Origin: a virus
Taxonomy: Duplodnaviria > Heunggongvirae > Uroviricota > Caudoviricetes
Strand: one strand, 5' to 3'
DNA length: 7,128 nucleotides
Virus record (IMG/VR): IMGVR_UViG_2695420565_000021
Location: 1 to 7,128 of that record
Shown: piece after piece, positions 2,601-7,128 of the stretch
Position numbering within the stretch: the first letter of the stretch is position 1
Layout of the letters: every line of letters begins with the position of its first letter
The notes under the pieces: generated by a model
What the model saw: the letters and a program-made list of their open reading frames with translations, nothing else
Told to the model about the DNA's origin: nothing
Database searches by the model: none
Program-made: the position numbers and the translations under genes

Positions 2601-2792
2601 ATGACCGATACCAGCCTGATTCCTGAGAAAGAAGTGATGAACAAGCTCGGTGTTTCATCACGTCAGACAATCTGGAACTATACCAAACGGCACGGATTTC
2701 CGAAGCCAGTCAGAACCCACCCCAAATCATACCTTCGTGAAGCTGTTGAGGGGTGGATTCTTAACGGTGGCGTTAATCAGAAATGCTCCTGA
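2601..2792 (+). CDS. alpA: AlpA/Xis-family helix-turn-helix protein (prophage excisionase or integrase regulator), 63 aa
   Basis: ATG at 2601 with GGAG at 2590-2593 (7-nt spacer). Translation shows the AlpA-type HTH pattern (KLGVSSRQTIWNYTKRHGFPKPVRTHPKSYLREAVEGWI). Lies directly beside the integrase. An in-frame ATG at 2638 is an alternative start. The gene symbol reflects family membership only. Confidence 0.7.
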   Translation: MTDTSLIPEKEVMNKLGVSSRQTIWNYTKRHGFPKPVRTHPKSYLREAVEGWILNGGVNQKCS

Positions 2793-3951
2793 TGTGCCAG
2801 AACAATTTATCAGCGTGAAGCTCATACGCTTTGCGCTGAGCCTCTATCCAGTCGTGTTTATTGTATACGGACATTATCCCGCCAAGTTCATGACCGAGCA
2901 TTCGCTCAGTAACATGAGGCTCGACATTCATCTCGGACAGACGTGTAACAAGCGTTCTTCTGAAATCATGTGTTCGCCAGTAACCTAGATCCATCCCTCC
3001 CCTTATTCTATTTACGAATCGGTTGGCTGCAGCGATGCTGATCGGTTTGTTTATGTCTTCTCCAGGGAAAAGAACATCATTGTACGTTGTCATGGCCTTT
3101 TCGAGAAAAGGCTTAATTTGTTCGAATATTGGACGACGGATAACATTACCCATCTTGCTATGCTCTTTCGGTACGGTCCATACGTTGTCCAGCAGGTCAA
3201 ATTCTGTCTTTGTTGCCAGCCTAAGCTCTGAGAGCCTCGCCCCCCACAGCATAAGCATCTGATGAAGGAGCTTATTTGACGTAGACGCACGGCTTCTTTC
3301 AATAGCAAGCCAAATCTTAGCCAGTTCGTGATACGACAGTACCCGATCCCCTACCTCAGCGCGGGAGCCGAAGTCCCTTGGTTGGATGCTCATAATTGCG
3401 CAACTATCTATCAACTGACGCCGCATGCACCAACTTATTGCTGATCTTAGTTGACTTAGCACCTGCCTTGCTCGGCGTGGATTATCTCTTTCTTCTTCGG
3501 TAAGCAGGTCAACCCATTGCTTAACCGTGATAGAAGATGCCGGACGATTAGGAAAGGCGTCATGCATGCGCTTCATAACCGTTGATCGGTAAAGTGCCTG
3601 GGTCTTTTCTCTGAGAGTTGTAGAGACGTAGTTGTCGAACCAGTAGTCGAGACACTGGGCGACCGTCATGGAGTTCTCCACCTTCTCTTCAAAATAAGTG
3701 CGTGGATCCGTTCCTGAGAAATAGAGCTTTCGCAAGTCAGCAGTGATCTGTCTGGCATCCTTCAAAGACAGGGATGGGTATCGACCAAGCCCAAGTCGAT
3801 TAGGCTTGCCATGCCAGCGATAGCGGTACTGGAACTGGATGACCCCCTTCGGTGAAATTCGTACGCTGAGGCCATCGGCATCAGCCACTTCTTGTGGGCC
3901 CGAATATGGTTTACCATAAATAGTACGCAGTTTTGTGTCGCTTATAGCCAT
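2773..3951 (-). CDS. int: Tyrosine-type site-specific integrase of the P4/IntS type (392 aa)
   Basis: Full-length - strand ORF. N-terminal arm-binding-like region (LSVRISPKGVIQFQYRYRWHGKPNRLGLGRYPSLSLKDAR) and C-terminal catalytic signature (HDFRRT as the H-x-x-R box, and SVYNKH with the candidate catalytic Tyr). No SD before the ATG. Family named from memory of the fold signature. Confidence 0.9.
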   Translation of the reverse strand: MAISDTKLRTIYGKPYSGPQEVADADGLSVRISPKGVIQFQYRYRWHGKPNRLGLGRYPSLSLKDARQITADLRKLYFSGTDPRTYFEEKVENSMTVAQCLDYWFDNYVSTTLREKTQALYRSTVMKRMHDAFPNRPASSITVKQWVDLLTEEERDNPRRARQVLSQLRSAISWCMRRQLIDSCAIMSIQPRDFGSRAEVGDRVLSYHELAKIWLAIERSRASTSNKLLHQMLMLWGARLSELRLATKTEFDLLDNVWTVPKEHSKMGNVIRRPIFEQIKPFLEKAMTTYNDVLFPGEDINKPISIAAANRFVNRIRGGMDLGYWRTHDFRRTLVTRLSEMNVEPHVTERMLGHELGGIMSVYNKHDWIEAQRKAYELHADKLFWHIRSISD

Positions 3952-4132
3952 AAATAATATTTGGTACGCTCAGAAATAATAGTTTGGTACACACCTGGTA
4001 CACAATATCACATGGACAACAGCGCACAGTAAACAACTATATTTGACGTTCGTAGACATACTCAGGTGAAAAAATGGTTGTTTTTCGAGTTATAACAGAC
4101 AGTTAATTAACTACAGTGGACAATGCTAGACA
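3952..4132. promoter_or_regulatory. Integrase-sbcB intergenic region carrying candidate attachment-site arm repeats and the divergent int and sbcB promoters
   Basis: Direct repeats AAATAATA(G)TTTGGTAC (3952-3967 and 3974-3990), GGTACACA twice with about 10-bp phasing (3987-3994 and 3997-4004), GACAATG twice (4119-4125 and 4129-4135), and CACAG(A)TAAACAAC (4025-4037 here, 4141-4154 inside sbcB). Promoter-like hexamers exist on both strands (for example TATAAC at 4091-4096) but none with a convincing -35/-10 pair. Confidence 0.4.
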
Positions 4133-5557
4133 ATGACAGACACAGATAAACAACCTACCTTCCTCTTTCACGATTACGAAACCTTTGGCACGCACCCCGC
4201 GTTAGATCGCCCTGCACAGTTCGCAGCCATTCGCACCGATAGCGAATTCAATGTCATCGGCGAACCCGAAGTCTTTTACTGCAAGCCCGCTGATGACTAT
4301 TTACCCCAGCCAGGAGCCGTATTAATTACCGGTATTACCCCGCAGGAAGCACGGGCGAAAGGAGAAAACGAAGCCGCGTTTGCCGCCCGTATTCACTCGC
4401 TTTTTACCGTACCGAAGACCTGTATTCTGGGCTACAACAATGTGCGTTTCGACGACGAAGTCACACGCAACATTTTTTATCGTAATTTCTACGATCCTTA
4501 CGCCTGGAGCTGGCAGCATGATAACTCGCGCTGGGATTTACTGGATGTTATGCGTGCCTGTTATGCCCTGCGCCCGGAAGGAATAAACTGGCCTGAAAAT
4601 GATGACGGTCTACCGAGCTTTCGCCTTGAGCATTTAACCAAAGCGAATGGTATTGAACATAGCAACGCCCACGATGCGATGGCTGATGTGTACGCCACTA
4701 TTGCGATGGCAAAGCTGGTAAAAACGCGTCAGCCACGCCTGTTTGATTATCTCTTTACCCATCGTAATAAACACAAACTGATGGCGTTGATTGATGTTCC
4801 GCAGATGAAACCCCTGGTGCACGTTTCCGGAATGTTTGGAGCATGGCGCGGCAATACCAGCTGGGTGGCACCGCTGGCGTGGCATCCTGAAAATCGCAAT
4901 GCCGTAATTATGGTGGATTTGGCAGGAGACATTTCGCCATTACTGGAACTGGATAGCGACACATTGCGCGAGCGTTTATATACCGCAAAAACCGATCTTG
5001 GCGATAACGCCGCCGTTCCGGTTAAGCTGGTGCATATCAATAAATGTCCGGTGCTGGCCCAGGCGAATACGCTACGCCCGGAAGATGCCGACCGACTGGG
5101 AATTAATCGTCAGCATTGCCTCGATAACCTGAAAATTCTGCGTGAAAATCCGCAAGTGCGCGAAAAAGTGGTGGCGATATTCGCGGAAGCCGAACCGTTT
5201 ACGCCTTCAGATAACGTGGATGCACAGCTTTATAACGGCTTTTTCAGTGACGCAGATCGTGCAGCAATGAAAATTGTGCTGGAAACCGAGCCGCGTAATT
5301 TACCGGCACTGGATATCACTTTTGTTGATAAACGGATTGAAAAGCTGTTGTTCAATTATCGGGCACGCAACTTCCCGGGGACGCTGGATTATGCCGAGCA
5401 GCAACGCTGGCTGGAGCACCGTCGCCAGGTCTTCACGCCAGAGTTTTTGCAGGGTTATGCTGATGAATTGCAGATGCTGGTACAACAATATGCCGATGAC
5501 AAAGAGAAAGTGGCGCTGTTAAAAGCACTTTGGCAGTACGCGGAAGAGATTGTCTAA
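4133..5557 (+). CDS. sbcB: Exodeoxyribonuclease I (exonuclease I, 3'-5' ssDNA exonuclease), 474 aa
   Basis: Full-length ORF whose translation from residue 9 onward matches E. coli SbcB as I recall it (FLFHDYETFGTHPALDRPAQFAAIRTD... to ...ALWQYAEEIV). The first 9 residues (MTDTDKQPT) differ from the K-12 N-terminus I remember (MMNDGKQQST). No clear SD. Confidence 0.95.
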   Translation: MTDTDKQPTFLFHDYETFGTHPALDRPAQFAAIRTDSEFNVIGEPEVFYCKPADDYLPQPGAVLITGITPQEARAKGENEAAFAARIHSLFTVPKTCILGYNNVRFDDEVTRNIFYRNFYDPYAWSWQHDNSRWDLLDVMRACYALRPEGINWPENDDGLPSFRLEHLTKANGIEHSNAHDAMADVYATIAMAKLVKTRQPRLFDYLFTHRNKHKLMALIDVPQMKPLVHVSGMFGAWRGNTSWVAPLAWHPENRNAVIMVDLAGDISPLLELDSDTLRERLYTAKTDLGDNAAVPVKLVHINKCPVLAQANTLRPEDADRLGINRQHCLDNLKILRENPQVREKVVAIFAEAEPFTPSDNVDAQLYNGFFSDADRAAMKIVLETEPRNLPALDITFVDKRIEKLLFNYRARNFPGTLDYAEQQRWLEHRRQVFTPEFLQGYADELQMLVQQYADDKEKVALLKALWQYAEEIV

Positions 5558-6899: not shown

Positions 6900-7053
6900 A
6901 AATTAATTAACCAGATGAATGTTAATGAGGAAATTATTCATGACTGGTGGAATGCAGACCAATAACCAAATTCTCTAAATTAGAACAAATGGTTATTAAT
7001 GAGGAGTTCGATACAAAAGAATAAAAAAACCGAAGCCAGGTAATGACTCCAAC

Positions 7054-7128
7054 TTACTGATAGTGTTTTATGTTCAGATAATGCCCGATGACCTTGTCAT
7101 GCAGCTCCACCGATTTTGAGAACGACAG
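7054..7128 (-). CDS. plaP: Probable 3' end of an upstream - strand gene, consistent by synteny with plaP/yeeF (partial, continues beyond the window)
   Basis: The only - strand frame open to the window edge reads ...LSFSKSVELHDKVIGHYLNIKHYQ then stop (TAA complement at 7054-7056). Assignment to plaP/yeeF rests on remembered gene order sbcB-yeeD-yeeE-yeeF, not on the 24 visible residues. Confidence 0.4.
   Translation of the reverse strand: MSFSKSVELHDKVIGHYLNIKHYQ

Follow-up and report, generated by a model that had tools for sequence, protein, structure and literature searches.

Arm and core of a 2851-type prophage attachment site at the 5' end of sbcB, with probable sites for integrase and a directionality factor

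Organization of the locus

The window analyzed here is the whole 7,128-nucleotide stretch of the viral record IMGVR_UViG_2695420565_000021 (Caudoviricetes), and it contains the junction between a prophage and the host gene sbcB, which encodes exodeoxyribonuclease I (ExoI). From left to right, the gene order is an early-left operon on the plus strand, an open reading frame (ORF) with a helix-turn-helix (HTH), the integrase gene int, a noncoding arm, sbcB, tsuB/yeeD, tsuA/yeeE and the end of IS1. The noncoding DNA between int and the annotated sbcB amounts to 181 bp. Short direct repeats are crowded into this region, and an original prediction, made from the letters alone, took them for arm-type and core-type integrase sites and/or operators of an AlpA-type protein. 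Positions 3952-4178 are the integrase-proximal arm and the core of attL of a '2851-type' lambdoid (Shiga-toxin-phage-type) prophage in the 5' end of sbcB, and a 13-bp core forms the boundary. [quoted passage not shown]

Int is 99-100% identical to the integrases of phages 2851, 1717, Sf101, mEp234 and HK544. Pfam recognizes an Arm-DNA-bind_3 domain at residues 4-85 (E=8e-18) and a Phage_integrase domain at residues 204-366, and the PDB matches are 3JTZ, the N-domain of a CP4-like integrase (E=5e-11), and lambda Int (1Z1B/5J0N). Int therefore has the separate N-terminal arm-binding domain of a lambda-type system and is encoded beside its site. The gene is transcribed away from the attachment site. 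From its start codon at 3951, the gene leads away from the core, and nothing but the arm lies in between; this arrangement is the same in all relatives compared. Since int adjoins attL and reads away from the core, its promoter must lie in attL. On the other side, sbcB is annotated at 4133-5557 (plus strand), and RefSeq lists its product as a complete 474-aa protein.

Table 1. Features of the int-sbcB region (window coordinates)
Feature	Positions	Strand	Basis or remark
Core TTTCACGATTACG (13 bp), crossover region	4166..4178	.	common to the empty site, both prophage junctions and attP
Probable arm-type site 1 (TTTGGTACGC)	3960..3969	+	TGGTACRC 11-18 nt upstream of the int start codon; GTAC kept in 26/26
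Probable arm-type site 2 (TTTGGTACAC)	3983..3992	+	23 bp beyond site 1; spacing of 22-24 bp throughout the relatives
Probable arm-type site 3 (CCTGGTACAC)	3994..4003	+	11 bp from site 2, same in 26/26 relatives
Predicted extended -10 of the int promoter (TGTGATATT, int-sense)	4004..4012	-	conservation and sigma-70 position weight matrix (PWM)
Array 1, five 10-bp-phased units (GGAC 4014, GCAC 4024, CAAC 4034, TGAC 4044, AGAC 4054)	4014..4057	+	probable RDF sites by the int promoter
IHF-consensus site (TAACAGACAGTTA; 8/9 specified positions of WATCARNNNNTTR)	4093..4105	+	fixed offset in relatives
Array 2, five 10-bp-phased units (TAAC 4108, GGAC 4118, AGAC 4128, AGAC 4138, AAAC 4148)	4108..4157	+	abuts the core
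Surrogate start codon and sbcB codons 1-11 (MTDTDKQPTFL; native MMNDGKQQSTFL)	4133..4165	+	identity with free-phage attP
63-aa winged-helix/AlpA-Xis-like protein, probable RDF	2601..2792	+	ORF list, PHROG 66, position
int, tyrosine integrase, 392 aa, P4/CP4-type N-terminal arm-binding domain	2773..3951	-	Pfam, PDB, identity with phage Int
Host-derived rest of sbcB (exodeoxyribonuclease I)	4179..5557	+	E. coli matches; Pfam RNase_T and Exonuc_X-T_C

The attachment site and its core

Three sequences define the junction. They are the empty dacD-sbcB site of enterotoxigenic E. coli (ETEC) H10407, the window, and, from strain S1, the opposite end of a prophage of this type. In the empty site the sequence is ATGATGAATGACGGTAAGCAACAATCTACCTTTTTGTTTCACGATTACGAAACC, and the core of attB is set in GTTTC-ACGATTAC-GAAAC. 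In the window, phage DNA continues through 4165 and is followed by TTTCACGATTACG (4166-4178) and then by host sbcB. At the dacD-side junction, the native 5' end of sbcB runs up to TTTCACGATTACG, after which phage DNA begins. Positions 3949-4178 are also found whole in the free phages mEp234 (L004) and HK544, where they adjoin the distal arm without a break. The 13-bp core is thus present in attB, in both junctions and in attP (L002, the window, L003 and L004/L006), as is typical of a lambda-type site. It encodes Phe-His-Asp-Tyr-Glu in the N-terminal exonuclease domain of SbcB. To the left of 4166 there is only phage DNA, and it takes in the start codon of sbcB as well as codons 1-11. This comparison with the other junction of the element had been proposed along with the original prediction, and it separates the arm sites, which lie in phage DNA, from the core, which is present at both ends. 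The view of the interval as an attachment-site arm was borne out by the junctions and by free-phage attP. The core-type sites suspected within 3952-4154 are not there, and the core is at 4166-4178.

Neither the attachment site nor its core is new. The records of mEp234 and HK544 label the same 13 bp 'attP; prophage attachment site (type 2851)', and that of phage 1717 labels the core 'duplication due to insertion of stx2c phage'. The core was published as CGTAATCGTGAAA for 2851 and Sf101 (PMC4159516). Phages with a type 2851 attP and sbcB as target (the Stx2c phages 2851 and 1717 as well as Sf101, mEp234, HK544 and HK140) carry the same element as the window, with an identical core and an arm that is 98-99.5% identical. 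Their records and the Sf101 paper define the 13-bp core only, and the present analysis adds the features of the arm. The phage records, the Sf101 paper and the literature searched, which did not include the 2851 paper (Strauch 2008), yielded no account of arm-type sites, of RDF arrays, of the int promoter or of the surrogate start of sbcB. In the literature searched, the arm's fine structure appears not to have been described, but its blueprint is a known one. For Shiga-toxin phages (Stx2c and some of the Stx1a and Stx2a phages), sbcB ranks among the principal places of insertion, and the int-sbcB junction occurs in about 11% of complete E. coli genomes (582 of 5426, or 10.7%, by megablast). 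The other genomes match only from about 4149 onward.

Repeats of the arm and their conservation

The four repeat families of the original prediction are present, and a shift of 1 nt is the sole correction to their coordinates. AAATAATA occurs at 3952 and 3974, followed both times by (G)TTTGGTAC. GGTACACA lies at 3986-3993 and 3997-4004 with a spacing of 11; its first copy had been placed at 3987-3994. GACAATG starts at 4119 and 4129, and CACAG(A)TAAACAAC is found at 4025-4037 and 4141-4154. The interval 3900-4200 holds seven repeated 8-mers versus 1.04 in 1000 shuffles (P=0.005), and 16 repeated 7-mers versus 3.8 in shuffles. TGGTACRC has three copies in the entire window (3962, 3985 and 3996) where 0.25 are expected; all three are within 3962-4003, and none of 200 shuffles reached this count.

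The repeats stand directly upstream of the annotated sbcB ORF and run into it, as promoter or operator elements of the host gene might, and short 7-8-mers frequently recur by chance in DNA. The probability that the repeats are host sbcB elements, or chance repeats in AT-rich intergenic DNA, is nevertheless practically negligible. None of the motifs is present in the prophage-free dacD-sbcB region of ETEC H10407, and the repeats are unchanged in free-phage genomes. They are enriched over shuffles, and their positions are kept across genera while the neighboring sequence diverges. The empty-site, free-phage and shuffle comparisons together rule out a host or chance origin. The prediction also held in that the repeats are conserved across the element family in other genomes and are absent from prophage-free DNA upstream of sbcB. 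The last CACAG(A)TAAACAAC copy does overlap annotated sbcB codons (codons 3-8), but this stretch is phage-derived and belongs to a replacement 5' end, not to host sequence common to both junctions.

The relatives used for comparison came from an integrase search, in which one-genome-per-species contigs gave 35 loci and 79 viral contigs were also returned. Relatives of Int with 46-99% identity are divergent from sbcB in 26 of the 35 genome loci. The hosts with an sbcB-linked int are E. coli, Shigella, Buttiauxella, Erwinia, Pantoea, Serratia, Tatumella, Rosenbergiella, Rahnella, Chimaeribacter, Klebsiella, Orbus, Gilliamella, Photobacterium and Parendozoicomonas. After removal of near-duplicates, 21 sbcB-type and 5 argW-type arms were compared (n=26); these non-redundant relatives have Int identities of 40-74% and belong to the Enterobacterales and Orbaceae. 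The HDYET peptide at the core is conserved in sbcB of the sbcB-linked relatives examined and is recognizable in 23 of 26 loci. In these 23 loci, the int start codon is 206-234 bp from the His-Asp-Tyr codons, and the distance is 213-217 bp in most Enterobacterales. The arm sequence itself is poorly conserved, with a mean column identity of 65% that is carried chiefly by both ends. Arm-type site 3 stands exactly 171 bp from the core in 16 of the 21 arms. The layout of the arm is conserved at base-pair precision in distant relatives. This strict geometry across Enterobacterales and Orbaceae, together with a sister clade at argW, makes the family a good comparative system for the co-evolution of arm architecture with Int and RDF.

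Aligned in this way, the four families reduce to two site classes at fixed positions. Of the first two families, TTTGGTAC and GGTACACA are probable arm-type Int sites with an invariant GTAC at three fixed positions (26/26). The AAATAATA half of the first family is not conserved in sequence among the relatives, and one of its copies is the translation-start region of int. The other two families are not separate entities, and both are pieces of two 10-bp-phased arrays of one unit. Units 2-3 of array 2 make up the GACAATG pair; of the CACAG(A)TAAACAAC copies, one falls on units 2-3 in array 1 and the other on units 4-5 in array 2.

Integrase arm-type sites

Three direct sites lie 11-55 bp upstream of int and correspond to the first two repeat families. 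Their consensus is ATTyKGTACRCA, and GTAC is invariant at each of the three in all 26 non-redundant relatives. Site 1 is 8-18 nt from the int ATG across relatives, mostly 10-12. The attP of mEp234 has five copies of TGGTACRC in the same orientation, three proximal and two distal, and the distal pair is 12 bp apart and 57-69 bp beyond the core. Repeats unlike the core are thus present on both arms of attP, as in lambda-type sites, and the same layout is seen with TGTAC in another relative (L071). Within one element, the base preceding GTAC is usually the same throughout: the E. coli type has G at each of its five sites, and L071, with an Int of 73% identity, has T at each. Among arms with three clear sites, 13 proximal triplets are all-G, 25 are all-T and 3 are mixed. 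Direct repeats that occur on both arms, differ from the core and evolve in concert have the look of arm-type sites of a heterobivalent integrase. The KGTAC sites are probably the arm-type sites of Int. The N-terminal domain of Int would bind the three proximal direct ATTyKGTACRC sites (3960-4003) and the two distal ones, and the catalytic domain would act at the core. Bridging of arm and core would then build the intasome, as with lambda Int.

Residue 39 of Int, in the arm-binding domain (window 3835-3837, minus strand), best separates the elements with GGTAC (Q/R/L/N) from those with TGTAC (T/A/S/N). As a determinant of G/T specificity it was dropped, because the two residue sets overlap at N and the lineages are not independent.

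Phased arrays and the candidate directionality factor

The second site class has the unit consensus rTGRACAr. Array 1 contains the first CACAGTAAACAAC copy of the original prediction. Array 2 contains both GACAATG copies and the second CACAGATAAACAAC copy, and it spans the sbcB start codon. NRAC is found 16, 26, 36, 46 and 56 bp from site 3 in 15, 13, 13, 11 and 11 of 21 relatives, respectively, and most other offsets have a background of 0-2. Upstream of the core, NRAC occurs at -61, -51, -41, -31 and -21 in 16, 16, 10, 18 and 11 of the 21, over a background of 0-1 at most other offsets. In the distal attP arm of mEp234 (2794-2807), the stretch from the core to the distal KGTAC pair holds a further two GAAC units, spaced by exactly 10 bp.

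A 63-aa protein encoded at the 3' end of int is the candidate RDF. It matches PHROG 66, 'excisionase and transcriptional regulator' (E=1.9e-8), and has an ortholog at the same position in relatives. RefSeq and GenBank name it as AlpA family or as similar to the phi24B excisionase. Its match to Pfam HTH_17 is below the cut-off, and a sequence search of the PDB returned at best E>0.2, to MerR/AlpA-type HTH proteins. A single-sequence AlphaFold model has a predicted local distance difference test (pLDDT) score of 59.6. These matches weakly suggest an AlpA/Xis-like protein. The ORF and int are convergent, and their 3' ends overlap by 20 nt (2773-2792). This overlap suggests possible transcriptional interference or antisense coupling between pL-driven transcription of the RDF gene and int. 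An overlap of 14-23 nt between int and the RDF gene is kept in nearly all relatives in which the ORF was found (L008-L101).

The closest mapped system was taken to be the KplE1 (CPS-53)/HK620/Sf6 module, with IntS, TorI and an attL at argW (Panis et al., PMC2951348). In KplE1, five TorI sites are arranged in two blocks between the core and the -35, and both IntS and TorI repress intS (PMC2951348). In the K-12 sequence of KplE1, the TorI sites GTTCG, GTTCG and GATCG follow one another at 10-bp intervals immediately before the -35. The KplE1 sites (GTTCG/GATCG/GTCCG) are the reverse complement of CGAAC-type units and have the same orientation relative to int as the units of the window.

The arrays are probably binding sites for the 63-aa protein. 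It has to be weighed whether they are instead additional low-affinity Int sites resembling the core type, or phased A-rich bending elements that wrap the arm, with KGTAC as the arm-type site in either case. The attB core is flanked by GTTTC and GAAAC, and many units contain GAAC or GAAAC in the orientation of the right half-site. The strict 10-bp phasing of A-rich units also resembles intrinsic curvature, and the RDF has no detectable similarity to TorI. Three observations speak for the RDF. The AC dinucleotide is far more sharply conserved than A-richness, and the motif, phasing, position and orientation of the arrays fit the experimentally mapped TorI sites. The third comes from Tatumella-type elements, in which all units of both arrays are AGGAW instead of TGRAC while the core is still TTTCATGATTATGAGAC. 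The small protein of these elements has RSPNT in its putative recognition helix, versus SSR(Q/T)T elsewhere. A concerted change of the units that goes with a changed RDF helix and an unchanged core favors the RDF over Int as the protein that binds the arrays. We therefore consider additional Int sites or bending elements unlikely. With the arrays as RDF sites, the 63-aa protein would bind both rTGRACA arrays (4014-4057 and 4108-4157) cooperatively and, together with IHF at 4093-4105, would bend attL for excision. Its binding at array 1 would switch off int as well, in the manner of TorI.

The int promoter and the IHF site

A scan of 3850-4250 for consensus promoters and terminators returned nothing at threshold. 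The promoter was therefore sought by conservation across relatives and by a PWM scan. On the int-sense strand just distal to site 3, TGnNAnnnT is found in 19 of 21 non-redundant relatives versus 15% of shuffled 30-mers, and along this strand of the arm, TGTGATATT at 4012-4004 scores highest among the sigma-70 PWM candidates. No good -35 accompanies the extended -10 of the predicted promoter. Transcription of int would start at about 3997, so that sites 3 to 1 would span approximately -6 to +45. A second promoter candidate, TTGTGT-18-TATTAT (4005-3976), was set aside as it is not conserved in relatives. From the extended -10 at 4012-4004, int would be transcribed by its own promoter inside the arm, and Int bound at sites 3 to 1 would limit or repress its own gene, as IntS does in KplE1.

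AlpA is established as an activator of intA of CP4-57. By this precedent, the repeats could be operators through which an AlpA-type protein switches on int. The AlpA family name in RefSeq and the weak Pfam match of the 63-aa protein would suit such a role, and so would the place of array 1, directly upstream of the predicted int -10. The gene arrangement points elsewhere. The 63-aa gene is convergent with int, overlaps its 3' end and has the orientation of the early-left operon, like phi24B xis, which is a shown excisionase. The Pfam AlpA score is under the cut-off. An operator for transcription would serve no obvious purpose at array 2, right beside the core. Lastly, TorI, the equivalent protein of the closest mapped system, represses int from equivalent sites. 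Activation of int by the 63-aa protein, as the original prediction had suggested, is thus very unlikely; by analogy with TorI and KplE1, the protein would be an excision factor and a repressor of int (PMC2951348), and either role is argued from analogy.

The IHF-consensus site is preceded by an A/T tract at 4068-4088. At core-76, at least 8 of 9 IHF consensus positions are matched in 12 of 21 relatives, over a background of 0.4% per position. Some lineages have an inverted YAAnnnnTTGATW site nearby, as read from their sequences.

The phage-supplied start of sbcB

The last 33 nt of the arm would supply a new start codon and 11 codons upon integration, so that sbcB stays an intact ORF. Positions 4133-4165 are identical in the free-phage attP of mEp234 and HK544 and unlike the empty site and the dacD-side junction, where the native 5' end is kept. 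An in-frame ATG, GTG or TTG lies 36 (+/-3) nt before the core in 21 of 21 arms, often right after a stop codon, and in every lineage compared the sbcB ORF is made whole again by the phage arm. The event usually called 'disruption of sbcB' keeps the ORF intact, with an N-terminus made by the phage. Array 2 overlaps the surrogate start and the first codons. The phage-supplied start is GTG or TTG in 11 of the 21 lineages, and a clear Shine-Dalgarno sequence is usually not seen. This hints at weak translation of sbcB in lysogens.

The prophage might go further and take over the control of sbcB. The native promoter and start would be lost to a promoter-poor arm, and ExoI output would be tied to the occupancy of attL by Int, RDF and IHF and to read-through from pL. 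We regard this extension as quite unlikely. If it were true, ExoI could be lowered or timed, to favor phage Erf/Rad52-type recombination or to affect SbcB-dependent defenses. A 2026 preprint reports control of DRT10 defense activation by host SbcB and a phage SSB-like protein (bioRxiv 10.64898/2026.04.29.721553). This link may be relevant to why phages target or rewire sbcB.

Comparison with known systems

The arm appears to combine the blueprint of KplE1 attL, with the int promoter inside attL, and the gene arrangement of phi24B, with an inverted int. In KplE1/HK620, the intS promoter is inside attL and the IntS arm-type sites overlap its -10 (PMC2951348). The window element shares with KplE1 an int beside attL that is read away from the core, and its predicted promoter is likewise inside attL and overlapped by probable arm-type sites. 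Its candidate RDF sites are also phased at 10 bp in two blocks between the core and the promoter. The integrases share a P4-type Arm-DNA-bind_3 N-domain (34% identity over 71 aa). The two systems differ in the arm motif, which contains TAAA in KplE1 and is KGTAC in the window element, and in the number of RDF sites, as five TorI sites (2+3) are mapped in KplE1 versus 5+5 units in the window. The torI gene is at the opposite end of the prophage, beside attR, whereas the RDF ORF of the window overlaps the 3' end of int. KplE1 targets the 3' end of a tRNA gene, and the window element targets the 5' end of a protein gene. KplE1 was mapped experimentally, and the predicted promoter of the window element has an extended -10 without a good -35.

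In phi24B (vB_EcoP_24B), int is inverted, has its own promoter and is CI-independent, and a small xis at the 3' end of int was shown to encode the excisionase (PMC3064807). The window element is alike in the inversion of int relative to lambda, in an own promoter between attP and int outside CI control, which is predicted in the window, and in a small gene at the 3' end of int in pL orientation, xis in phi24B and the 63-aa ORF in the window. The attP is large in both, 350-427 bp in phi24B (PMC3064807, PMC7581858) and approximately 295 bp between the outermost KGTAC sites in the window type. The phi24B integrase appears to be of another lineage and has another target, and it is promiscuous and IHF-independent. 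The arm extends the KplE1/phi24B paradigm and leaves current concepts unchanged.

The lambda attP is made up of P1, P2, P'1-3, X1/X1.5/X2, H1/H2/H' and COC'. Like the window type, lambda has a heterobivalent integrase and a short common core. Its direct arm-type sites, distributed 2+3 over two arms, its IHF sites and its RDF sites, phased by about one helical turn, have candidate counterparts in the window type. In contrast, lambda int and xis are transcribed together from pL/pI in the direction of attP, and int is under no autoregulation through attL. The lambda Xis sites are on the arm distal to int, and the lambda target is intergenic, so no gene is repaired.

Several points weigh against the overall explanation. 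The assignments of proteins to sites rest on position, conservation and analogy, and the conservation among relatives is partly shared ancestry. Array 1 of the window is degenerate, with GCAC as its second unit. The 63-aa protein scores 17.8 bits against Pfam AlpA (PF05930; cut-off 21, E=0.003), which is below threshold, and a pairwise BLAST with TorI gave no significant similarity (E=1.1). TorI itself is likewise below the PF05930 cut-off. To the empty consensus scan comes the lack of any positionally conserved promoter or -10 that reads toward sbcB in the arm, by relatives, consensus scan and PWM. Lastly, phi24B Int works without IHF (PMC7581858, PMC3064807), and the IHF site may be dispensable. 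With these points included, we still consider the explanation likely. The base-level map of the arm (Int sites, probable RDF arrays, IHF site, int promoter and core) offers targets for work on prophage stability, excision and superinfection.

The argW sister clade and neighboring sequences

A sister clade of integrases with 50-57% identity (L024, L025, L026, L028, L091, L100 and L101) is divergent at the 5' end of the tRNA-Arg gene argW. The junction in the attP of this clade (L118) is in the D-arm region of argW, and it therefore appears that the tRNA gene receives its 5' end from the phage. Stx2a phages at argW, such as Stx2a_F723, have an Int of this clade (56% identity). Their layout is that of the window element: upstream of int are three KGTAC sites, here spaced by 24 and 11, the distal arm has two, GAAC units are present, and the phage replaces the 5' end of the target gene; their target is the 5' part of tRNA-Arg, versus sbcB in the window. 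In L101, one argW gene lies between two prophage ends approximately 200-420 nt upstream of int. The sister family occupies its 5' end, and a KplE1-like attL (GTTCG sites, TTGACA, GGGTAAAA) occupies its 3' end. In Klebsiella sp. BIGb0407 (L032), 13 tandem 7-bp GTGAACA units replace arm sites 2 and 3 and array 1 in the first 120 nt upstream of int. This run is a microsatellite-like expansion of the array unit, and the element is possibly defective.

An Rfam scan of 3800-4300 matched no family. To the left of int, the early-left ORFs on the plus strand (141-2792) encode an ead/Ea22-like protein, a DUF551 protein, a 114-aa PHROG 1229 protein and the RDF candidate, and all of them face int, attL and sbcB. 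As they are aimed at attL, induced transcription from pL would cross int antisense and enter sbcB. At the right end, downstream of tsuA/yeeE, positions 7039-7128 hold the terminal inverted repeat and the first bases of IS1. The window matches to its last base in strain S1 only, and the matches of other genomes end at 7038.

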